Part shown: positions 21,134-43,974 of the stretch, piece after piece
How positions within the stretch are numbered: position 1 is the first letter of the stretch
How the letters are laid out: each line of letters starts with the position of its first letter
DNA from: Escherichia phage HelliStehle_Bas95
Length of the DNA: 56,332 nt
Reading direction: 5' to 3' (one strand)
Sequence record: PQ850607.1
Position numbers and translations under genes: made by a program
Notes under the pieces: generated by a model
Seen by the model: the letters and a program-made list of their open reading frames with translations, nothing else
What the model was told of the DNA's origin: nothing
The model's database searches: none

Positions 21134-22116
21134 TGAGCATCGGTGAAGCACTGGCGTCAATGTTTGCGGGTGCCGCTGGCGAAGCAGCAGGTAATCGGGC
21201 GGTAGAGATCCGCGACGAAGAAAAGGCACGCATCGCTGAAGCACGCGAAATGAAAATGATGGCACTCCAGCAGAAGTACCAGACGTCCGAGCGTGAGGCC
21301 AGTCAGGCTTACGGCACCGCTGAGCGTCAGGATACTCAGGGTTGGCAGTCTGGCGAGAAGCAGAAAGACCGTGACTTCCAGTCGTCTGAACGTGCTGCGT
21401 CTCAATCCTTCCAGGCGGTACAATCGGATAAAGCGCGTGCTTACCAGGACGCTAAAGAGAAGAAAGCGCAACTGGCGGCACAACAAGAATCCGCAGCGGC
21501 GGTAGGTAGTGTTGACGATTTAGGTAACGCTATCAAACTCGACGGTACACCTTATAAATTGGGTGGCCAGTGGTTGCGCGCTAAACAGTATGCTAACGGT
21601 CGCATTGTGGCTGAACCGCTGGGTGCTACCGCTGCCGAGAAGATGGATAGACGCGTAGCGCTTGAGAATGACGACGGTGACACGCAGAAGTCTCGTGATC
21701 TCACAATCGTTAAAGAAGGTATTAAATCCGGCGACACAACAGGTGTATTCGGTTCGTTTATCAACGCAGGCAACATGGCAGGTGACCTGGCGAGTGCTAA
21801 ACTCGGTAGCGAGAAATCACGCGATGTTTACAACGCTGTAAACCGTATCAATGGTGCGTTGTTGGCACAAGGCGTGGCCGATGCGAAAGCGATGGGTGCA
21901 TCGGGCATCAACACCGCGGCAGAAGCACAGATGTACTTCAAAGGATTGCCGTCGCTTGACTTGTCAAGCCCCGAAGCAGCAATGCGTGCCATTAACCAAA
22001 TCGATGCGTATAATAAAGACTTCAAGCAAAAGCAGCGGCAAGAAGTCGGGCTACCAGCGAACCCCGTGTCTAAACAAAGTAGCGACGGGTCGTTCGGTAG
22101 CAAATACGGTTATTGA
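21133..22116 (+). CDS. hypothetical virion protein
   Basis: 327 aa. Confidence 0.5.
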   Translation: MSIGEALASMFAGAAGEAAGNRAVEIRDEEKARIAEAREMKMMALQQKYQTSEREASQAYGTAERQDTQGWQSGEKQKDRDFQSSERAASQSFQAVQSDKARAYQDAKEKKAQLAAQQESAAAVGSVDDLGNAIKLDGTPYKLGGQWLRAKQYANGRIVAEPLGATAAEKMDRRVALENDDGDTQKSRDLTIVKEGIKSGDTTGVFGSFINAGNMAGDLASAKLGSEKSRDVYNAVNRINGALLAQGVADAKAMGASGINTAAEAQMYFKGLPSLDLSSPEAAMRAINQIDAYNKDFKQKQRQEVGLPANPVSKQSSDGSFGSKYGY

Positions 22117-22122
22117 TTCAAG

Positions 22123-22142
22123 CCGCCCTACGGGGCGGTTTT
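22123..22142 (+). terminator. intra-operon terminator/attenuator hairpin
   Basis: CCGCCC-tacg-GGGCGG followed by TTTT. Confidence 0.5.
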
Positions 22143-22157
22143 CACAGGAGTACTATC

Positions 22158-24362
22158 ATGGCACGTCCTTTTTCTGAAATCGCAGCATCCCCCGAGTTTC
22201 AGGCTGAAACACCGGAGACTCAGGAAGCAATCAAACAAGACTATTTCAATAAGGTGATCCGCCCACAGGTTGAGGCCAATGGGGACGACCCTGACGAGGT
22301 TTTCAACGACTTCTCGTCAAAGTACACATTCAAACAACCTGAAGCGCCTGTGCAGCAACCTGAAGCGCCTGTGCCGCAACAACAGGTTCAACCTTCACCG
22401 GAAGAACAGCAGGCCGCAGCAACCGTTCAGAACTATCTGAACAAGCCCGCTGAAACAGGTTACACCCTGGCCTCATCAGGTAGTGAACCACAGGAAACTA
22501 ATACCGGTATCATCGGTGCTATCAAAAATGCTGTTACTGGTGGTGACGCGGCGGAAGGTAGTGCCGCAAGTTTACCTCTGGCAGGTGAAGCGCCTGAGTT
22601 CTTTGGTAACGGTGTGGACGAAGAACTGAAGAACGGCGACGCACTAGACCAAATGCTCAATTGGGCTGGCAACAGGCTCGGAGGCATCGCTACGAATATG
22701 TTTGGTGGTGACGATTCAATCATCAAACGTGCGGAGTCTCGCGGTGGTAAGGTGTCACAGGATGAGCAGGGTAATGTAATCATTACTTTCCCGTCGGGTA
22801 AATATCAGGTTAACAAACCCGGTCTGGACATCAACGACGTTGCTAAATTTACGGCACAGGCAGCCCCTGCGGTCGCTACAGGTGGAGCGGGTGCAGCATT
22901 AGGTCTCGGCGGACGAATGGTCGCGCAGGGAGCGATTCAGGGCGGTTTAAACTACGCTCAGCAAAAAGCTGTAGAAGCTGGCGACGGTCAGAATGTTGAC
23001 ATGGGTGATGTTGCACTTAACGCGACACTGGGTGGTACTGGTGAGTTACTTGGCCCGGCCCTGCGCGGTGGTCGTGAAATTTTCAAACGCGGCTTAGGTA
23101 ATGCTGACGAGGCCACGAAAGAAGCGTTGAAGATTGCCGACGAAACAGGTATCCCAATCGCCACTTCCGACATGATTGCCGCAGGTGATCTCGGTGGCGG
23201 TGTAACAAAATACGCATCTGCGGTTACAGACAAGCTCGACCCGTTTGCCGCAGGTCGCCTGCGGCAACAGGAACTGATCCCGGAAAAGACCGCCGACATT
23301 TTTGTTGACCCTGAAGTCGCCGCAAAATATACAGACGAAGCTATGATTGAAGCGCTTGATAAAGGTAGTCGCGCACGCATGGCCGACGCTGGTAAACGCT
23401 TCGAAGAAGTGAAGACAGCTATGGGTGACCAGCCGATTCCCGTCCGAAATACCTCAGCGGCTATTGACGACGTGCTGAAAGAATGGGAACGCCCTGGGAC
23501 ACTCGTCGACAAAGGTGACATTGAATACCTGAAAGACATTCAGGCGAAGCTCACAGAAGCGCCACAAGATGTGATTATGCTTCGCGAAAACCGCACGCGC
23601 CTGCGTCAGTCGTTCGGATCCGGTATGAACAAAATGCTGGGTAAAAATGACCTTCAGAAAGCAGGGCGTAAAATTTACGACGCTTTGACTAAGGACATGC
23701 ACGAAGGTGTTGAAAACACGCTGGGTGCTGATGCTTTGACAACGCTCAAATCGGCCGACAAAGACTGGGCGTCTATCAATAGCGATTTAGGTTTCCAGAA
23801 AATTGCGGCAGCCGTTAAGAAAGGCGAGGCCGACCCCGCGCGACTGCGTGAAACGTTAACATCATTCGGCACGGGCGATCTACAAGCGCTTGACCGCAAT
23901 CTCAACGCCGAAGGTCGGAATATGATCAAAGGCGCTGTACATAAAAACTTAATGGCAGCTGCAACCAACGCTGACGGAGAATTTCAACCAGGGGCAATGT
24001 TGCGTGCCATTGAGAAAAACAAGGACGTCATCAAGCAGTTCTACACTCCCGAACAGGCCAAGCAGATTGAAGGTGTGAAGAAACTTCTGTCCACTGCGCG
24101 CGGTGCTAAGGCTGCAACGACCATTGCTAACAACGGTGGCTTGATGCTTCCTATCACTGCGGCGATGGGTGTTGGTTCGGCGGGAATCGGTGGTATTGCG
24201 GCGGCTGCGGGTGGTATTGCGGCTAAACGTTTGAGTAACTCTCGCCCAATGCGAAACGCGCTGATTCGTCTGTCCACCATGAAACCCGGCAGCATGGCCT
24301 ATTACAAGACAGTGAGACAAATCAACGCGATCATCGCGAATCAAGCATCTACCGACGAGTGA
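22158..24362 (+). CDS. large virion protein (possible internal/injection protein)
   Basis: 735 aa from ATG 22158 with SD ACAGGAG; last gene of the + morphogenesis block. Confidence 0.5.
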   Translation: MARPFSEIAASPEFQAETPETQEAIKQDYFNKVIRPQVEANGDDPDEVFNDFSSKYTFKQPEAPVQQPEAPVPQQQVQPSPEEQQAAATVQNYLNKPAETGYTLASSGSEPQETNTGIIGAIKNAVTGGDAAEGSAASLPLAGEAPEFFGNGVDEELKNGDALDQMLNWAGNRLGGIATNMFGGDDSIIKRAESRGGKVSQDEQGNVIITFPSGKYQVNKPGLDINDVAKFTAQAAPAVATGGAGAALGLGGRMVAQGAIQGGLNYAQQKAVEAGDGQNVDMGDVALNATLGGTGELLGPALRGGREIFKRGLGNADEATKEALKIADETGIPIATSDMIAAGDLGGGVTKYASAVTDKLDPFAAGRLRQQELIPEKTADIFVDPEVAAKYTDEAMIEALDKGSRARMADAGKRFEEVKTAMGDQPIPVRNTSAAIDDVLKEWERPGTLVDKGDIEYLKDIQAKLTEAPQDVIMLRENRTRLRQSFGSGMNKMLGKNDLQKAGRKIYDALTKDMHEGVENTLGADALTTLKSADKDWASINSDLGFQKIAAAVKKGEADPARLRETLTSFGTGDLQALDRNLNAEGRNMIKGAVHKNLMAAATNADGEFQPGAMLRAIEKNKDVIKQFYTPEQAKQIEGVKKLLSTARGAKAATTIANNGGLMLPITAAMGVGSAGIGGIAAAAGGIAAKRLSNSRPMRNALIRLSTMKPGSMAYYKTVRQINAIIANQASTDE

Positions 24363-24964
24363 TTACGGAAAGGGGTGTTGTACAGCCCCTTAATTTCTTT
24401 AATTGCTGCGGTCACGTTCGTAAACCAGACGATTCTAGCAAAGAACACGACCCCCAACGTACACCATGAAATGAACCATGTCATCGGGTCCATAACACCG
24501 AAGAATGCTGGCGCAAACGTCAGGGTGAACGCCATACCGACATAACCTACAACATTCATGACAGCATTAAACCACGACTTTTTAAGCATCTCGGTCATAG
24601 CAAAACGCATGGCTTCTTCTGTCAACTCTCCGCGATTAGTGCGCTTGATTTTGGATACGGTAGGTGTTTTCGACATGTTCAGGACAAACCACACACCACC
24701 AGTGATCACTAAAGTACCAACACTCAGTACATCAAAGGATAAACCTGCGACGATAAGTAACAGACCTACAGTCCAGTTGAAGGTGCGGGATGTACCGAAC
24801 AATGCGCCAAACACCGCCTGTGTAGTCCGCTGACCAACGTATTTCTTCAACGTCTCCAGGTCTTCAACTTTATAGCGATTTAACGACACTACGCGTACAG
24901 CGTGCAATCTGTTGTCAGCACCGTAGTATTTAACGTTTCTGTTTTTCTTCTCTGAATATTTCAT
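24341..24964 (-). CDS. polytopic membrane protein of unknown function
   Basis: 207 aa with about 4 hydrophobic helices; 3' end overlaps the convergent 735-aa gene. Confidence 0.5.
   Translation of the reverse strand: MKYSEKKNRNVKYYGADNRLHAVRVVSLNRYKVEDLETLKKYVGQRTTQAVFGALFGTSRTFNWTVGLLLIVAGLSFDVLSVGTLVITGGVWFVLNMSKTPTVSKIKRTNRGELTEEAMRFAMTEMLKKSWFNAVMNVVGYVGMAFTLTFAPAFFGVMDPMTWFISWCTLGVVFFARIVWFTNVTAAIKEIKGLYNTPFRNHSSVDA
24370..24391 (+). terminator. terminator hairpin closing the morphogenesis block
   Basis: AAGGGG...CCCCTT stem followed by AATTTCTTT. Confidence 0.5.
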
Positions 24965-25472
24965 AATTTTCTCTCACTATTCGTGTATAGCCGCGATTGT
25001 ATTTGAACTCTGGTCCCCAGTCTGTGACACGTGCCACATTGTGGAAATTATGCATTTCGATTCTGATTTGCGATTCTTTACAGCCAAACATGGCCGCTAT
25101 CTTGTCGCACCAGCTGAGATCCGTTTCAGCAATTCTGGCGACAACCTCATCGGCCACGGTTTGTGGAGAATCGATACCGTAAAGGTCTTCTATTTCCAGC
25201 CATAACTTAGTACCTGCCAGCCGCCTGGTCACCGACCACAACCATTGTGTATGTGCTGTTTGACCCAATGCTTTACGGGGTGACATATGCCCCAGTATTT
25301 CGTGCCTGGCGACTTCTTTCAGTCTGTAGGCAGGCATCGGGAAGAACACTACAGCTTCCTCACTGTACAGCGCCACCGCCTCAACGTTATAGGGCATCGG
25401 GTGAAACGACTCACACTTCAGATAATGAACGTCACATATACCGTCAACCAACCTGTCTACATAAGCACTCAT
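24930..25472 (-). CDS. HExxH-motif protein (putative ImmA/SprT-like zinc metallopeptidase)
   Basis: 180 aa containing VARHEILGHM; strong SD AAGGAGG; overlaps downstream membrane-protein gene. Confidence 0.45.
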   Translation of the reverse strand: MSAYVDRLVDGICDVHYLKCESFHPMPYNVEAVALYSEEAVVFFPMPAYRLKEVARHEILGHMSPRKALGQTAHTQWLWSVTRRLAGTKLWLEIEDLYGIDSPQTVADEVVARIAETDLSWCDKIAAMFGCKESQIRIEMHNFHNVARVTDWGPEFKYNRGYTRIVRENYEIFREEKQKR

Positions 25473-25492
25473 AGAGCCTCCTTTTCACGTCA

Positions 25493-25528
25493 AATATACT
25501 TGACGATGTTAACGCTGTCAAGTATATT
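25493..25528. promoter_or_regulatory. overlapping divergent sigma70-type promoters embedded in a 12-bp perfect inverted repeat
   Basis: + strand TTGACG-17-TATATT (25500-25528); - strand TTGACA-17-TATATT (25493-25522); AATATACTTGAC/GTCAAGTATATT dyad around GTTAAC. Confidence 0.6.
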
Positions 25529-25557
25529 CGGAAAACCACTAAACGGAGATCACATCA

Positions 25558-25769
25558 TGAATTTACCACCGTTACCACCATCGTCACAGATATTCAGAGA
25601 AACCCTGAAAATTGTCAGTGACGCTAAGTCACGCGGAGTAACCATCGGCAGCACTGTAAACTACGGCGGGTCGACGTATGTCGTCGATAAGTTTCACGGT
25701 AGGGCGGTACGTCTTCTTAACGACACAGGTGGCGCGATTATAGTTGACGTCAGAGAGGTCAACCGATAA
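25558..25769 (+). CDS. small hypothetical protein
   Basis: 70 aa; SD ACGGAG; downstream of + promoter. Confidence 0.5.
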
Positions 25770-25810
25770 GCTGTAGTTTCTCGATGACATTCCCTGTAGA
25801 TTGATAGCGC

Positions 25811-25887: not shown

Positions 25888-26262
25888 ATGGACATGGGAT
25901 ATTACAACATGAACAAGCAGATTAGAGTGGAAATGCTTGTCGGCATGGTGACACTTGCATGGTCAATCGTGGCGGCAGTCTTCAAACAGCCGATCATTAT
26001 CGACGAGTTATCTGGTGTTATGCCGGGCGCATATTGGGTATTCTCAGGTATCGTAATCGGAGGCGCACAAATCTTCATCTCCCGCAATCCCGACCGATGG
26101 ATGGGAACATTCAGTCACTGGTGTGTAGCGTTCTTCAGTTGTATCTTCTGGTGTTATCTCGGCATGGCCGCACAGGCTGCCGCAGTAGGAGTTCTTCCCG
26201 TCCTGATTTTCTGGTCAACCGCTGGTATCACTTTATGGGAGTTGGCTCATGTTCGAACTTAG
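25888..26262 (+). CDS. membrane protein
   Basis: about 125 aa, several hydrophobic helices; start codon uncertain. Confidence 0.45.
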   Translation: MDMGYYNMNKQIRVEMLVGMVTLAWSIVAAVFKQPIIIDELSGVMPGAYWVFSGIVIGGAQIFISRNPDRWMGTFSHWCVAFFSCIFWCYLGMAAQAAAVGVLPVLIFWSTAGITLWELAHVRT

Positions 26263-26482
26263 TTCAATTCCTGTGGATGCGCCGTTACCTTTCATTGCCA
26301 TCGCTGTGTTATTCAACCTGGTGCGCCATGCGTTGAATCTTCACCACGAACGTAAGAAGGAAGCTGCGGAAGAGGCCACGAACGAAAGGATTGTTTTGTT
26401 GTCAGCTAAACTGGCGAGGGCGGAACAGACTATCGAGCACTTGAGGGAAGAAGTGGAACGCTTAGTAAACAAAGGGGCTTAA
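26249..26482 (+). CDS. small membrane-anchored coiled-coil protein
   Basis: 77 aa; N-terminal hydrophobic helix then charged helical region. Confidence 0.45.
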   Translation: MFELSSIPVDAPLPFIAIAVLFNLVRHALNLHHERKKEAAEEATNERIVLLSAKLARAEQTIEHLREEVERLVNKGA

Positions 26483-26493
26483 CGCCCCTTTTT
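26471..26493. terminator. bidirectional terminator shared by convergent genes
   Basis: AAAGGGGC-ttaac-GCCCCTTTTT; both stop codons (TAA 26480-26482 on +, TAA at 26479-26481 on -) lie in the loop. Confidence 0.6.
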
Positions 26494-26679
26494 AATACTC
26501 GCTGCAATTTTTAACTGCACAGGTACACGGTCAGGATCGCGGTGAATACCTACATCCGACGGTGCGGAAATGCGTAGACCGACGTTACCGTTCTCGGAGT
26601 TCTCCACCGTCACGACAATATCGTTACCGATGTAAACACTCTGACCTTCACGTCTGGTAATACGAAGTCCCTTAGCCAT
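26479..26679 (-). CDS. csrA: CsrA/RsmA-family RNA-binding regulator homologue
   Basis: 66 aa MAKGLRITRREGQSVYIGNDIVVTVENSENGNVGLRISAPSDVGIHRD matches CsrA pattern L-I-T-R-R-x-G-x4-I-G-x4-V-T-V...AP..V..HR. Confidence 0.75.
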   Translation of the reverse strand: MAKGLRITRREGQSVYIGNDIVVTVENSENGNVGLRISAPSDVGIHRDPDRVPVQLKIAASIKKGR

Positions 26680-26905
26680 TGATCTCCGCCTTAGCTTTCT
26701 TAGCTTTGATGACGCGACTAATCGCCACCAGTAAAGTGATAACACCAGACACGACCGGGAGATATTCCTCCGGTACCACAGCCTGGAATAAATGTGGGGC
26801 AGTTTGCCACACGATGAGTGCTGCGTCAGGTACGGTGGTCAGTACGGTGGTCACAGCGATACCAATAGTAATACCAGCATCATGCAATGCTTTAGATTTA
26901 TCCAT
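26672..26905 (-). CDS. holin-like small membrane protein
   Basis: 77 aa, two hydrophobic helices and basic C-terminus; immediately downstream of endolysin. Confidence 0.55.
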   Translation of the reverse strand: MDKSKALHDAGITIGIAVTTVLTTVPDAALIVWQTAPHLFQAVVPEEYLPVVSGVITLLVAISRVIKAKKAKAEING

Positions 26906-26961
26906 CGTGGATACTCCTTGATTTGGCGTCCTTGCCAGGATGAGCGACCCCGACTGGCCGC

Positions 26962-27492
26962 TTAGATATTGACGCGATTAGCAACCCACCCGTAAATGAA
27001 CGAGCGATTTTTAGCGTTGCTTTCGGTAAGCTCAATATACCGTACGCACTGGAGACTGTTAAGCATTTTCAGTAATACTTTAGTGCCAACGCTACCGCGT
27101 GAACGCAGGAAGTCTGCGAGGGCATTCACTGTACGCTTACCGATAGCACCATCCACTACGAGGCCAGCGCCTGACACAGCGTTGAGTGCACGCTGGAGGA
27201 ATTTACCAGCCACCGTCGGACCCATGTTCACGCCAGTGTCCACCACTTCCGCAGCTACAGCCGGGTCAAGTTCAGCCAGTCGGTGATAGCCGGGATTGAT
27301 CACGTAGTCTTTGTAGTAGATGTCGTAGGCTGTGGTAACAGGTAAGTCCCGCATGTTACCTTTATATCCGGCAGCACGGGCAACCTTTTCAGTGATGCCG
27401 TATTTGGTAGCGCCGCCCGGATCATTCGGATGGTCTACGTATCCACCTTCAACGCGAATAATCTCGTCGATGATTTCACGGATGCTTGTCAT
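26962..27492 (-). CDS. endolysin, glycoside hydrolase family 108 with C-terminal peptidoglycan-binding domain
   Basis: EGGYVDHPNDPGGATKYGIT signature near N-terminus; 176 aa. Confidence 0.8.
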   Translation of the reverse strand: MTSIREIIDEIIRVEGGYVDHPNDPGGATKYGITEKVARAAGYKGNMRDLPVTTAYDIYYKDYVINPGYHRLAELDPAVAAEVVDTGVNMGPTVAGKFLQRALNAVSGAGLVVDGAIGKRTVNALADFLRSRGSVGTKVLLKMLNSLQCVRYIELTESNAKNRSFIYGWVANRVNI

Positions 27493-29448: not shown

Positions 29449-30039
29449 TTATTTTATTAAAAGTTTGTGCGCTTGAAAAATGTACCAAAGGTAATTCACA
29501 TTATTCCAGTCGAGACGGGAGGCCAGGCTACAATCTGATACAAGTTGACCTGAGCACATGCTTGATTCTGTCACATCACCCCATCGACTTTTATTCTTCG
29601 TGTGGATGCGCTCGTCGTGCGGCACCCCGGCAGCGTCCAGCTTGCGCAACATGGCGATCACCGGGTCAGCCAGCAGTTCCGCAACCACGCTGTCGTAATA
29701 CTGGTCCGTCAGTTTGTTCTTACGCTTCCACGTTCCGGGCGTACCCTTCGGTGCCGTGCGCTTAACTAGTGTGCCGCCGGACTGCGCGACGTAATACCGG
29801 ATAGTGTTGGACAACTTCTCTTCGTGGCCGTCCGGGTAAACCAGATGCAGCGACGAGTCACGGTTAACCTTGCCACGTAACATGAAGTCGTAAGGGTCAC
29901 GGTGGTTGATAATGAACGACGTTAAGTCTTTACCATAAACCATATGCTCCACCACCGCCTTCTGCACCACCAGGGCGGAGTGATCTTTATGCCACTCACG
30001 ATCGAATGCGTAAGCGCCTTTCAATTTCAACTTGCTCAT
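29449..30039 (-). CDS. hypothetical protein downstream of DNA polymerase
   Basis: 196-aa ORF, different frame from polymerase ORF, in-frame TGA 7 codons upstream of its ATG. Confidence 0.5.
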   Translation of the reverse strand: MSKLKLKGAYAFDREWHKDHSALVVQKAVVEHMVYGKDLTSFIINHRDPYDFMLRGKVNRDSSLHLVYPDGHEEKLSNTIRYYVAQSGGTLVKRTAPKGTPGTWKRKNKLTDQYYDSVVAELLADPVIAMLRKLDAAGVPHDERIHTKNKSRWGDVTESSMCSGQLVSDCSLASRLDWNNVNYLWYIFQAHKLLIK

Positions 30040-30169
30040 ACAGCCACCCTCTCGACGTCATAACCTTTACACTCGTGTCTATCACCAGCATGTCTGTGGA
30101 AATACGACGGTACCGATGTATGTAGTTTCATTTTCACCAAACCTTAATTACTTGACGATAGCAATATAG

Positions 30170-31711
30170 TTATTCGTACTCCGCAATATAATTGTTGCAA
30201 TCTCGAATGAACATTCGACTGTAACACGCTTCTTCAAGCTCTAACTGGGTAACCTGTTCCCACCACTTACACACGTTGTCAACATGTTCCAGATATTCCA
30301 CCGGACAGTAGTACGTGATACCGTCGGTATTACACTGAATCATCCGAAGGCCCGGAACTTTCAGTAATTGCTCAACCAACATACACAGTGAAAGCTGGCC
30401 TGATACAGTAATCGTGAGTGTGTACTGAGAATCGTAAAACGGGCTGTACGCATTGTTACTGTTGCCGTACGTACCGTTGAGGGCCAGCTTGAAAGCTCCG
30501 CCCATCATCGTCTTTTTACCTACACGCAGACGTTCGTTATACAAAAACTCGTATATCTCACAAAACTTTTCTGACAGGTGCGCAGGGTAAATCTTATTTT
30601 TGATTGCAAGGTTTGGGTAATAACTCGCAACGTCACGATCCCGCACTTTCATCTTATCGTCACTAACTATTATTTCTCTGTGTAACGATGCGTGCAATCC
30701 CCCTGTACCGAAGTCGTAATTGAAATCGTTGATACGACAATGCAAGCTGGCCGCCACAAACTTCGCACCCTCAAGGTCTGTACCCTCTGGCAAGTTGCAT
30801 AAGCGACGTGGCTTTTTAGAACCCTTCACCCACACTTTGATACGCTTCGGGTCCATCCACTTAATCATCTCAGGTGTACATACAATGTCTGAAAACGCAC
30901 CTTTAGTTTCCTTGATTGTCTGAGCGGCCAGGTAGTTCATTACCATTTGAAACGCGGGATGTTCCAGTTTGATGTAAGGTATGATGCATTCTTTCAGCGG
31001 TATCTCTTTACGAATGGTCTGACGAGGTACACGTTTACCGCCTTTCTTTTCGTAACACGGTACACCAGATTTCTCCAGTTCCGTGATGAACACCTCGGCC
31101 CCGATCTTAGTGTCATTATGGTTCATGAAGTCTTTTCCGTATTTCTCGGTAAGCTCTTCACGAAATTGAATCATGTCGTACGACGCCTTGTAAAACTCTA
31201 ATGTCGCATCAACGTCATGGTCGTTGTACGCCCACAGAATTTTCTTTTGGTCATCGTCCAGATGGGTACCGACCGGGAACGGCAGGTCTTCCACACTGTC
31301 CATACGCATTGATATCTCCAGCGCCTTCAGACTGGTAGCCTTAGCCTTGTTATCGAAGTGGTGGATCTTCAGCAGGTCAATCTGCGGTATCAGTCGAGCG
31401 TCAGCCCACATCGGGTAAGCGTTGTCACCTTTAATACGCTGCATGGCCTTCTGATAAATACCTGCTACGGATGCCCACGGATTTTCGTACAACCACTGCA
31501 AAATTTCCCAGTCAAACCACAGGTTGTTGTAACCTACCATACGCTGGTCGTTGTTACGCAGGTAGTTCATGAAATAGAAAAGTTTCTCCCTATCATCTCG
31601 ACGGTCAGATATTTCATAACGGTATCTGTTACCAGACACAGCATGAACCGCACTGAACGTGAAGATGTTGGGGTACGTTTCCAAATCGTAAACATAATCG
31701 CGAGCATCCAT
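30170..31711 (-). CDS. family B DNA polymerase (compact, exonuclease + polymerase motifs)
   Basis: YDLETYPN (Exo I), YNNLWFDWE (Exo II), DVASYYPNL (motif A), KLALNGTYGNSNN (motif B), NTDG in place of DTDS (motif C); 513 aa. Confidence 0.75.
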   Translation of the reverse strand: MDARDYVYDLETYPNIFTFSAVHAVSGNRYRYEISDRRDDREKLFYFMNYLRNNDQRMVGYNNLWFDWEILQWLYENPWASVAGIYQKAMQRIKGDNAYPMWADARLIPQIDLLKIHHFDNKAKATSLKALEISMRMDSVEDLPFPVGTHLDDDQKKILWAYNDHDVDATLEFYKASYDMIQFREELTEKYGKDFMNHNDTKIGAEVFITELEKSGVPCYEKKGGKRVPRQTIRKEIPLKECIIPYIKLEHPAFQMVMNYLAAQTIKETKGAFSDIVCTPEMIKWMDPKRIKVWVKGSKKPRRLCNLPEGTDLEGAKFVAASLHCRINDFNYDFGTGGLHASLHREIIVSDDKMKVRDRDVASYYPNLAIKNKIYPAHLSEKFCEIYEFLYNERLRVGKKTMMGGAFKLALNGTYGNSNNAYSPFYDSQYTLTITVSGQLSLCMLVEQLLKVPGLRMIQCNTDGITYYCPVEYLEHVDNVCKWWEQVTQLELEEACYSRMFIRDCNNYIAEYE

Positions 31712-41885: not shown

Positions 41886-42376
41886 AACCTTTCTACGCAA
41901 GCAAGACACCAAAGGAGTTACGCGATTGCTGGGGTACGCCCCAGTGGTTGATTGATCGCCTGTCGCTGGAGTTTGATTTCGCAATCGACGCGGCGGCAGA
42001 TGAGCACAACAGAAAGTTCCCCCTGTATTTTAAGCAGGGGTTGGGCTTTAACTGGGCGGACTTCTGCCCGGAAGGTAAATGGGTATGGAACAACCCGCCG
42101 TTCTCTGACGTCGACCCGTGGGTGGATCAGTGGATACAGTGCAGCGAATCGGACCGTGGCGTGGTGTCAATCGTCAACGCACAGACGAGCAGCCGCTGGT
42201 TTCATAAGGCGCTGGAGGCTTGCTCAGAGGCCAGGTTTAGTATCGGGCGTGTGGCCTTCATTCACCCCGTTACCGGAAAGCGTGTAGCCGGAAACAACCT
42301 GGGGCAAGTGCTGTTCGTATTTGAACCGGGCAAGCTGGGTGAAAAAAGAATTGGCACTTTCAAAGGAACCAAGTAG
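41882..42376 (+). CDS. phage Dam-like DNA N6-adenine methyltransferase
   Basis: DCWGTPQWL and NPPF motifs; GTG start overlapping primase stop. Confidence 0.65.
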   Translation: MKPFYASKTPKELRDCWGTPQWLIDRLSLEFDFAIDAAADEHNRKFPLYFKQGLGFNWADFCPEGKWVWNNPPFSDVDPWVDQWIQCSESDRGVVSIVNAQTSSRWFHKALEACSEARFSIGRVAFIHPVTGKRVAGNNLGQVLFVFEPGKLGEKRIGTFKGTK

Positions 42377-42403
42377 AATGGATTACTTGACAAAGGAGGA
42401 TGT

Positions 42404-42592
42404 ATGAAAATCACACCACTGAAGGAATGGATTGAAGGTCACCGCTCGTTAACGGCTGCGGCTGAAGTGCTCGACGTTCCAAAACAAAACCTGTCGTTTG
42501 CTTTGAACAAAGTGAAGGGCGCTACGTTTGTGCTGGAGGAAGACGACGGGACACTGCGGTTGTTACGTGAGGTTGCAAAAAGGGGCGCATAA
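42404..42592 (+). CDS. small hypothetical protein
   Basis: 62 aa; SD AAGGAGGA. Confidence 0.5.
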   Translation: MKITPLKEWIEGHRSLTAAAEVLDVPKQNLSFALNKVKGATFVLEEDDGTLRLLREVAKRGA

Positions 42593-43071: not shown

Positions 43072-43372
43072 GGCGGCTGGCCTCCTGTGCATCAACGATT
43101 GCTTCGTTTGTGGCGACAATGAGATCCACCACATGTTTTGCGAGTACGGTAAGATTCCCGTGTCGCGCTTGATTCACCACGTTGATCGCGGTGTTCTCAT
43201 CCGTCATCATTTCCACGCCGTCAATCAGGTCGACGATGAATTTGTGGCGGTCATACTCCCGGTTAAAGCTGGCGATGTCCGGGTGGTTATCAAGATGAAA
43301 GCAACACCTGTATCCTTTAGGTAAATTGGTAACGCGATCACCTACTCGCGGCCCGTCGATTAAAAGAATCAT
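43061..43372 (-). CDS. hypothetical protein
   Basis: start at MILLIDGP...; ATGA overlap with HNH gene. Confidence 0.45.
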   Translation of the reverse strand: MILLIDGPRVGDRVTNLPKGYRCCFHLDNHPDIASFNREYDRHKFIVDLIDGVEMMTDENTAINVVNQARHGNLTVLAKHVVDLIVATNEAIVDAQEASRHVR

Positions 43373-43974
43373 GCTTTGTGTTCTCCGTGGTTGGCAAATT
43401 CTCCATGTGCCAGTCGTTGAGCCTGTAACCATTCCACGGCGAGGCGTTTACCTTCTTCAGTTAAAGGGAAGTATTTAACATTCTTGCATACTCCCGCACG
43501 ATAACACTTTCCTTTATTTACAGACAAACCTTTGATACCCGTCGAACTATCAAACCGCGTTTGTCTATTCCAACTGTTCTCGTCCGGTTCAGCTTCCCGT
43601 AAATTAGAGATTCGATTATCATCACGAATCCCGTTAAGATGGTCTAACCATCCGTTAGGTGGTTCACCGTAATACATTTCCCATATAATACGGTGAACCT
43701 TCCAACACTTGCCGTCAAACGTGCATTGTCTATAACCTTTCGGATCAAGCGAACCAACCTCATCACCAGCTTTAACGCGACGAGCCGTTGGTCTTTTCCA
43801 GAACAGCTTCCCGGTAACAGGGTCGTAACGAAAATGATGCTCAAATAAATGTAGCGACAATTTGAGCCTCCTTGCGATGTGATCTGTGAATGGTAACGAC
43901 TCCAGCCGTTTCAAGTTTCTTCGCCGCCTTGCGCACATGCTCTTTGTCATAGCCGGTATAGGAGGCCAGTTCAT
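43369..43974 (-). CDS. HNH homing endonuclease with AP2-like DNA-binding domain
   Basis: GKLFWK...GYRQC..DGK.WKVHRIIWEMYYGEPP.GW.DHLNG.RDDNR.SNL; start uncertain (overlaps upstream ORF). Confidence 0.7.
   Translation of the reverse strand: MNWPPIPAMTKSMCARRRRNLKRLESLPFTDHIARRLKLSLHLFEHHFRYDPVTGKLFWKRPTARRVKAGDEVGSLDPKGYRQCTFDGKCWKVHRIIWEMYYGEPPNGWLDHLNGIRDDNRISNLREAEPDENSWNRQTRFDSSTGIKGLSVNKGKCYRAGVCKNVKYFPLTEEGKRLAVEWLQAQRLAHGEFANHGEHKA

Follow-up and report, generated by a model that had tools for sequence, protein, structure and literature searches.

A divergent CsrA-family protein encoded at the end of the lysis cassette of a virulent Escherichia phage

Introduction

The 56,332 nucleotides of Escherichia phage HelliStehle_Bas95 analyzed here (sequence record PQ850607.1; the whole stretch, numbered from its first letter, is called the window below) encode a 66-residue protein of the CsrA type directly behind an endolysin gene and a holin-like gene. 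With a probability of roughly 0.8, this protein is a functional, divergent member of the CsrA family through which a virulent Xuquatrovirus adds translational repression of the CsrA type during infection. The presence of csrA in this phage group is already known from GenBank annotation and from three papers. Contributed here are the synteny of the lysis cassette, followed to a relative whose CsrA is 61% identical, a conserved hairpin in the leader of the holin gene, and the likeness of that leader to the operator of the ColE7 lysis gene. Control of lysis timing by CsrA is presented as a testable lead, not as a result, and apart from this holin-operator idea the finding is of modest interest.

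Phage-borne copies of a global RNA-binding regulator offer a plausible route to the rewiring of host translation, and in 2020 such a copy was present in about 1% of the phage genomes surveyed. The Xuquatrovirus clade is well suited to finding the targets of such a copy, as the phage is virulent, grows on laboratory Escherichia coli, has a knock-down phenotype, and carries a candidate site of the CsrA type on its holin mRNA.

Family membership and predicted fold

The translation of the frame is MAKGLRITRREGQSVYIGNDIVVTVENSENGNVGLRISAPSDVGIHRDPDRVPVQLKIAASIKKGR (beginning MAKGLRITRREGQSV and ending KKGR). Its match to the Pfam CsrA profile, PF02599, has an E value of 1.2e-12 and a score of 48 bits, set against a gathering cut-off of 27, with residues 5-48 aligned to positions 2-45 of the 53 in the profile. 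The protein also matches PHROG 9500, "CsrA-like regulator" (4e-9), and, among sequences of the Protein Data Bank (PDB), RsmE 2jpp (8.5e-7) and RsmA/CsrA chains. A preliminary description of this DNA, drawn from its letters, had placed a 66-residue CsrA-family frame at 26479-26679 and aligned it residue for residue with E. coli CsrA, naming a search with the PF02599 profile and a structure prediction as ways to check the assignment. The profile search, significant and above the curated cut-off, bears this out, as does a BLASTP alignment with E. coli CsrA that runs without a gap over 44 residues, of which 16 are identical (36%) and 68% are positives (E=3e-10).

Both of the strands that carry the family's RNA contacts can be recognized in the phage protein, the β1 motif as L5-R-I-T-R9-R10 (LxITRR) and the β5 motif as V43-G-I-H46-R47-D48 (VxIHRD). 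In an alanine scan of E. coli CsrA by Mercante et al. in 2006, the residues found to be critical were reportedly L2, L4, R6, R7, V40, V42, R44, and I47. The gapless alignment keeps L2, L4 (as I), R6, R7, V40, V42 (as I), H43, and R44 of the E. coli protein; the phage residues at the scanned positions are L5, I7, R9, R10, V43, I45, and R47, and the position of I47 is occupied by D, N, S, or G. The arginine of the HR(D/E) position, which the preliminary description had singled out as needed for RNA binding and as conserved, is indeed R47, the counterpart of E. coli R44, and is invariant in the clade, as are the principal RNA-contact residues of β1 and β5. An essential role of R44 in CsrA is given in PMC7366521. 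The phage protein would probably bind RNAs containing GGA.

An AlphaFold (AF2) model of the monomer, with a predicted local distance difference test (pLDDT) score of 73, has strands at residues 14-17, 21-27, and 33-38. When this model is compared with the PDB by Foldseek, ranks 1-15 are all CsrA, RsmA, or RsmE chains, the top 11 of them with probabilities of 0.99-1.00 and template modeling (TM) scores of 0.5-0.6, so that the claim of a CsrA fold withstands the comparison at the level of the monomer. Taken at its own strength, membership of the 66-residue protein in the CsrA family is close to certain.

Divergence from housekeeping CsrA

The phage protein is of similar size to E. coli CsrA and to the Pseudomonas proteins RsmA and RsmE (PDB 1y00, 1vpz, and 2jpp), and it has in common with them the motifs of the five-strand core, LxxTRR, IGD, VTV, and APxxVxxHR(D/E). 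It differs from the housekeeping proteins in three additional N-terminal residues (MAK-G) and, relative to E. coli CsrA, in a swap of the R31 and G33 positions. It differs also in being encoded by a virulent phage without a cognate sponge RNA having been found. In the window no Rfam family reaches its gathering score, sponge RNAs of the CsrB/CsrC/RsmX-Z type included, and the densest stretch of GGA holds a maximum of 6 GGA per 60 nucleotides, compared with a mean maximum of 5.2 in shuffled sequence; a phage-encoded sponge RNA was rejected on these two grounds.

Several properties weigh against a protein that works just as its housekeeping relatives do. The cut-offs of the NCBIfam CsrA equivalog models NF002469 and TIGR00202 are missed by a wide interval (37.2 versus 73 bits and 29.4 versus 70.1, respectively). 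The amphipathic C-terminal helix EEIYxRIQ that follows HRE is absent; the phage sequence there is HRDPDRVPVQLKIAASIKKGR, for which no helix is predicted and the pLDDT is about 60. The C terminus as a whole reads HRD-P-DRVPV-QLKIAASIKKGR, a proline-containing linker followed by a basic LKIAASIKKGR tail modeled with low confidence, and replacement of the helix (EEIYQRIQ, including I47) may have altered affinity or specificity. The tail is kept across most of the clade in the form LK[IL]AA[SN]xKK. Scores so far under the equivalog cut-offs, together with a clade-specific C terminus, mark the protein as a divergent paralogue and not as the orthologue-equivalent of host CsrA.

Such divergence could also be read as the mark of an antagonist, a protein that draws host CsrA into inactive heterodimers or competes for its sites without repressing, thereby releasing the CsrA regulon from repression. 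The altered C terminus with D, N, S, or G in place of I47, the exchange of R31 and G33, and the scores well under the equivalog cut-offs all fit such a role. The RNA-contact residues of β1 and β5 are nevertheless invariant in the clade, which would not be expected of a mere dimer poison and makes an antagonist or heterodimer role less likely, and with 36% identity over a strand-swapped core heterodimers would be unlikely to form. Antagonism of host CsrA is for these reasons an improbable account of the protein.

The gene and its place in the lysis cassette

The features of the block, in window coordinates, are the following.

26479..26679, minus strand: csrA-like gene, 66 residues, final cistron of a leftward replication-lysis block; Pfam CsrA match and homologues in phages Pondi and PTXU04.
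26684..26687, minus strand: Shine-Dalgarno sequence GGAG of csrA, within the 3' end of the holin gene; read from the sequence.
26672..26905, minus strand: holin-like gene, 77 residues; DUF7940 and PHROG 1356 holin, with homologues annotated as holin in many siphophages.
26962..27492, minus strand: endolysin gene; Glyco_hydro_108 (5.6e-23) and PG_binding_3 (1.7e-15) in Pfam, PHROG 315 endolysin (3.9e-46).
26471..26491, both strands: bidirectional terminator hairpin AAAGGGGC-UUAAC-GCCCCUUU; read from the sequence and conserved in all relatives.
26249..26482, plus strand, convergent: gene for a 77-residue protein with a transmembrane segment and a coiled coil, homologue of PTXU04 gp27; syntenic in all relatives, its sole family match weak and PspB-like (E=0.04).
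25888..26262, plus strand, convergent: gene for a 124-residue multi-pass membrane protein, homologue of gp26; no family match.

An alternative frame of 88 residues, starting from a GTG at 26745, appears among the open reading frames of the window. The ATG at 26679 is preferred because GGAG stands 4 nucleotides upstream of it and because every homologue has the N terminus M-[AGS]-K-G-L. This start and its Shine-Dalgarno sequence are conserved among the relatives, and a TAAGG block upstream of csrA is invariant in seven of them. Selection at the RNA level on the GGA codon of Gly4, just after the start, is unsupported, as three lineages have GGT there. The placement as the 3'-terminal gene of the endolysin-holin cassette, with an 8-nucleotide overlap between the csrA ATG and the holin stop codon (ATGGCTAA), is seen in the sequence just as first described.

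At its other end the gene runs into the terminator. The loop of the hairpin holds both stop codons, that of csrA and that of the convergent gene, and the final csrA codons (KKGR) double as the 5' arm, so that part of the conservation of the C-terminal tail may reflect constraint on DNA or RNA. The same hairpin is annotated as a terminator in the PTXU04 record (ARNOLD, -14.3 kcal/mol). That endolysin, holin, and csrA are transcribed together is plausible from their common strand, their overlap or close spacing, and the position of the only terminator just after csrA. A sigma-70-like promoter inside the endolysin gene (27062-27034, 10/12 matches) was not relied on, the number of such promoter-like sites being that expected from shuffling.

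The order RdgC-like gene, endolysin, holin, csrA, terminator, and two convergent genes for small membrane proteins is kept in Pondi, in PTXU04, and in the metagenomic relatives L003-L007, L028, and L029, in which CsrA identity falls to about 64%. In L011, a 60-kb contig whose CsrA is 61% identical, Rz-like and Rz1-like spanin genes lie between holin and csrA, and csrA is still the last gene of the cassette. The csrA genes of other phages (F116, phi297, and the IMG/VR contigs L014-L027) stand beside cI-type repressors, RecE/RecT, Sak4, or ParB-like genes and not beside lysis genes. A position in the lysis cassette is thus peculiar to this clade, and within the clade it is stable.

Two observations concern the genes around this block. 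Neither the window nor Pondi nor PTXU04 has spanin genes between holin and csrA (comparison of window 26479-27492 with L011 1412-3067), and in L011 the Rz1-like gene overlaps the Rz-like gene. The pair of gp26 and gp27 homologues always accompanies the lysis-csrA block and uses the same terminator; in the gp26 homologue a small hairpin encloses the Shine-Dalgarno GGAG, and another GGA lies 17 nucleotides upstream. In PTXU04 both gp26 and gp27 scored Not fit (CRISPRi-ART, PMC11879866), and a lysis- or envelope-related role of the pair is possible.

Relatives, selection, and published phenotypes

The window belongs to Xuquatrovirus, the PTXU04 group of virulent E. coli podophages. Its CsrA is 100% identical to Pondi_00074 of Escherichia phage Pondi, annotated as "csrA; translational regulator," and 94% identical to PTXU04 gp28 (QBQ76642.1 / YP_009823384.1), and in both phages the gene has the same neighbors, the same overlap, and the same terminator as in the window. 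Over the part that can be matched, the DNA of the window is about 92% identical to that of Pondi; the window differs from Pondi and PTXU04 in the segment adjoining the lysis module and in having a split DNA polymerase gene. An exhaustive HMMER search places the protein in a small dedicated clade (P0007, 70% identity; P0009, 58%; P0011, 54%; P0018, 51%), after which come generic bacterial CsrAs. Giant proteins with several "CsrA-like" stretches in that search were rejected as artefacts of Ig-like repeats, SprB and CARDB.

When the window is set beside its distant relatives L007 and L003, four-fold synonymous sites are 34-35% identical and thus saturated, while the CsrA protein itself remains 76% identical in L007 and 65% in L003; the protein has therefore been held by purifying selection. 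The view that the frame is a nonfunctional remnant or a chance reading frame could appeal to its shortness and to its score under the equivalog cut-offs. It has next to no credibility in the face of this selection, of significant matches to Pfam, PHROG, and PDB profiles or sequences, of a conserved start and Shine-Dalgarno sequence, and of a published knock-down phenotype (PMC11879866).

That phenotype belongs to PTXU04 gp28, which is also listed among 30 csrA-positive phages in Table 3 of Sobrero and Valverde 2020 (PMC7366521). Adler et al. 2025 (PMC11879866) name gp28 a csrA homologue and report that it scored Semi-fit in CRISPRi-ART (fitness -0.22, p=0.11), that knock-down with single guides confirmed smaller plaques, and that gp28 belongs to a set of seven PTXU04 genes for which expression in E. 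coli "was toxic or interfered with phage infection." A complication for reading the smaller plaques as loss of CsrA is that the gp28 guides fall within the 3' end of the holin gene, where a residual polar effect is possible. Guides at the ribosome-binding site of the holin gene (gp29) scored Not fit in the same study, a result that speaks against simple polarity and weakens holin polarity as the full cause of the phenotype. Since the gp28 guides lie within the holin gene, the published knock-down cannot discriminate between the models of function discussed below.

A candidate CsrA operator in the holin leader

The leader between the endolysin and holin genes contains the following elements.

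26906..26961, minus strand: endolysin-holin intercistronic leader, 56 nucleotides; three conserved blocks in alignments.
26943..26962, minus strand: stem-loop AGCGGCC-AGUCGG-GGUCGCU directly past the endolysin stop; predicted both by folding single sequences and by the RNAalifold consensus, free of covariation, unique in the window.
26924..26937, minus strand: small hairpin uGGC-AAGGAC-GCCa with GGA in the loop, candidate CsrA site 1; core invariant in six lineages.
26914..26919, minus strand: holin Shine-Dalgarno sequence AAGGAG, candidate CsrA site 2; a GGA-containing Shine-Dalgarno sequence is present in all relatives.

The core of the small hairpin, GCA-N-GGA-N-GC, is invariant in the six lineages despite the saturation of four-fold synonymous sites against the distant relatives, and the letters of the stem vary around it (GGC/GCC in the window, CCGC/GCGG in L007 and L029, GCA/UGC in L003), with an exchange of G-C for C-G in the stems of L007 and L029 that is visible by eye. 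The GGA of the loop and that of the Shine-Dalgarno sequence are 14 nucleotides apart in the window and 12-14 nucleotides apart across the relatives. Dual-site binding by CsrA is said to have been described by Mercante et al. in 2009 for spacings of 10-63 nucleotides. Ranked by A(N)GGA content, the holin leader is number two among 82 leaders. Each of its two elements occurs once in the window, so that a recurring phage promoter was rejected as an explanation for them. The hairpin core also fits the consensus for CsrA from SELEX, RUACARGGAUGU with GGA in the loop, as quoted in PMC2896534.

A precedent for such an arrangement is found in the cea-cei-cel operon of ColE7, in which host CsrA binds the GGA of a stem-loop after cei and the GGA of the cel Shine-Dalgarno sequence, repressing translation and limiting the lysis protein (PMC2896534). 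The ColE7 cel leader and the phage holin leader have the same layout, an upstream stop codon followed by a stem-loop whose loop contains GGA, a Shine-Dalgarno GGA, and the gene for a small lysis protein. They differ in that the regulator of ColE7 is the CsrA of the host and its binding has been demonstrated, whereas binding in the phage is predicted and the phage has a csrA of its own immediately downstream of the lysis gene.

Several observations tell against an operator. About 25% of the GGA triplets in the window lie in the loop of a hairpin of at least 3 base pairs, so that such hairpins are common by chance, and a loose dual-site test is passed by about 11 of about 85 genes. The folding stability of the leader is not significantly greater than that of shuffled sequences (z-scores of -1.7 to 0.05), and RNAalifold finds both hairpins with zero compensatory pairs, the stem exchange of L007 and L029 being missed because gap placement by MAFFT hides it. 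In L011, the most distant relative, the aligned GGA is kept and the neat hairpin is absent. The 10-mer GCANGGANGC occurs in 8 copies genome-wide against 2.3 expected; half of these are antisense to genes, so that the enrichment probably reflects codon or composition bias and was not used as evidence. Moreover, abundant host CsrA could use the same leader sites without any phage copy.

These difficulties give room to a quite different explanation, in which the elements of the leader have nothing to do with CsrA and serve instead as a signal for processing, stability, or attenuation by which the ratio of endolysin to holin is set, the GGA being just a part of that structure. The second conserved stem-loop right after the endolysin stop fits it, as do the weak fold statistics and covariation and the chance frequency of GGA-loop hairpins. 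It leaves unexplained that the letters which never vary coincide exactly with the CsrA core (CA-N-GGA-N-G in the loop) and those of the stem do vary, that the spacing of 12-14 nucleotides to the Shine-Dalgarno GGA falls within the reported dual-site range, and that ColE7 provides a precedent of the same layout. A CsrA-independent signal is a tentative proposal that the evidence permits without favoring, and a genuine operator that sets lysis timing, proposed from the conserved letters of the leader, is to be regarded as rather doubtful as well.

Comparison with lineages that have the cassette and lack csrA yielded no usable control. A scan of viral contigs with the holin alignment for related cassettes without csrA returned only PTXU04, the holin homologues of GenBank phages share just 35-44% identity and their genes are ordered differently, and the holin gene of Halfdan overlaps its upstream gene and so has no leader to compare.

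Elsewhere in the window, the leader richest in GGA (4 GGA) lies at 42344-42409 on the plus strand, ahead of the gene 42404..42592, which encodes a 62-residue protein with a weak helix-turn-helix match at the end of a helicase-primase-Dam operon. It contains a 6-base pair hairpin, caagua-GAAUGGAU-uacuug, and the Shine-Dalgarno sequence AAGGAGGA, and is another possible target of the CsrA type.

Possible targets in the host and in the phage

How a protein of this family would act on translation can be described by analogy with its relatives. The phage CsrA would form a homodimer with two RNA-binding surfaces, each composed of β1 of one chain and β5 of the other, and the dimer would bind GGA in hairpin loops and in Shine-Dalgarno sequences, blocking the entry of ribosomes. 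Two classes of target can be envisaged, host mRNAs of the CsrA regulon (metabolism, stress, possibly defense) and the holin mRNA of the phage itself, and these are not mutually exclusive. That host mRNAs of the CsrA regulon are the main targets has about an even chance of being right; it would explain the appearance of gp28 in the list of toxic or interfering genes of Adler et al.

In its strict form, the proposal of host targets becomes one of host takeover alone, in which the protein has no targets but host mRNAs or the host Csr circuit, for instance raising the activity of CsrA or sequestering CsrB/CsrC so that the cell stays growth-like and low in defenses, and its position after the holin gene is an accident. 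This proposal, whose odds are slightly short of even, can draw on several lines of published work. Expression of gp28 in uninfected E. coli was listed as toxic or interfering with infection (PMC11879866). Campa et al. 2021 (PMC8450108) proposed that phage RsmA/CsrA proteins manipulate their hosts and possibly repress CRISPR-Cas, an anti-CRISPR role, and found that the presence of phage csrA correlates with hosts that have a CsrA of their own. Deletion of bci, a csrA-type gene of Pseudomonas phages, lowers infectivity and changes quorum sensing, motility, biofilm, and pyocyanin in the host (PMC7546807). The csrA genes of other phages are unlinked to lysis, and a slot between the last gene and a terminator is a typical site for accessory genes. 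An accidental position is harder to reconcile with its retention through large divergence and through the insertion of spanin genes, and with the conserved candidate site of the CsrA type in the adjoining holin leader.

Comparison with other CsrA proteins of mobile elements illustrates how different this context is. The Bci- or RsmM-type proteins of the temperate Pseudomonas phages AUS531phi, phi297, and F116 are 46-54% identical to the phage CsrA over the core. They have 123 residues with a long C-terminal extension and come from temperate phages, whereas the protein described here has 66 residues and comes from a virulent one; their genes lie in the early region near repressor and recombination genes, and this csrA lies after the lysis genes. 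Paralogues of CsrA on plasmids and on integrative and conjugative elements (S. meliloti pMBA19a CsrA, Legionella CsrT, and the Rsm proteins of Pseudomonas plasmids) are thought to tune expression of the host or of the element (PMC7366521). They are mobile-element copies like the phage csrA, with a different type of element and context and, in every case, no link to a lysis cassette. Another structural variation on the family occurs in metagenomic single-chain proteins with tandem CsrA domains, P0010 (two domains; Pfam CsrA, E=2.6e-32), P0013 (four; E=2.2e-48), and also P0014, which would be covalently linked CsrA "dimers."

To return to the phage protein as an added translational repressor, its second possible target class leads to a specific model of lysis control. 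If CsrA bound the GGA hairpin and the Shine-Dalgarno GGA of the holin leader, the holin-csrA pair, being translationally linked, would form a negative feedback that delays or stabilizes the timing of lysis, and repression of the holin would also repress csrA if their translation is coupled. In the fullest form of the model, csrA and holin would make up a self-contained lysis timer whose feedback sets the latent period independently of the variable Csr state of the host. Such a timer is unlikely, with perhaps one chance in four of being correct. If the link between csrA and holin is real, the fold of a global regulator would be tied to the timing of lysis, a key trait in the life history of phages and relevant to the design of phage therapy, and a lysis timer, if real, would be the first phage-encoded CsrA with a defined cis target and would extend lysis timing beyond holin/antiholin pairs. 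If the link is false, the gene merely adds to the csrA copies already catalogued on mobile elements.

Other observations in the window

Homology of the window to Pondi and PTXU04 ends near 25780, at a segment of the window (22113-25780) that adjoins the convergent gene pair. In Pondi and PTXU04 a 2198-residue "polyvalent protein" (gp25, LPD38) is encoded next to that pair, and it has no counterpart there in the window; gp25 is a Fit gene in the CRISPRi-ART screen. In its place the window has a frame of 749 residues (22113..24362) and small frames at 24341..24964 (minus), 24930..25472 (minus), and 25557..25769 (plus). Among these window-specific frames, at 25493-25528, two divergent sigma-70-like promoters overlap within a palindromic stretch, TTGACA-17-TATATT on the minus strand (11/12) and TTGACG-17-TATATT on the plus strand (10/12). 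The promoter pair and the window-specific frames look like a self-contained inserted cassette.

The DNA polymerase gene on the minus strand (29449-31711) is split into frames of 513 residues (30170..31711) and 196 residues (29449..30039), separated by a divergent segment of about 210 nucleotides; PTXU04 and Pondi have about 104 nucleotides there and a single polymerase coding sequence. Possible causes are a small insertion or intron, a gene that is truly divided, a frameshift, and a mistake in the assembly; an Rfam scan of the window gave no intron match. Amid small early genes, at 43369-43974 on the minus strand, lies a gene for an HNH endonuclease (PF13392, E=9e-14), possibly a homing endonuclease.

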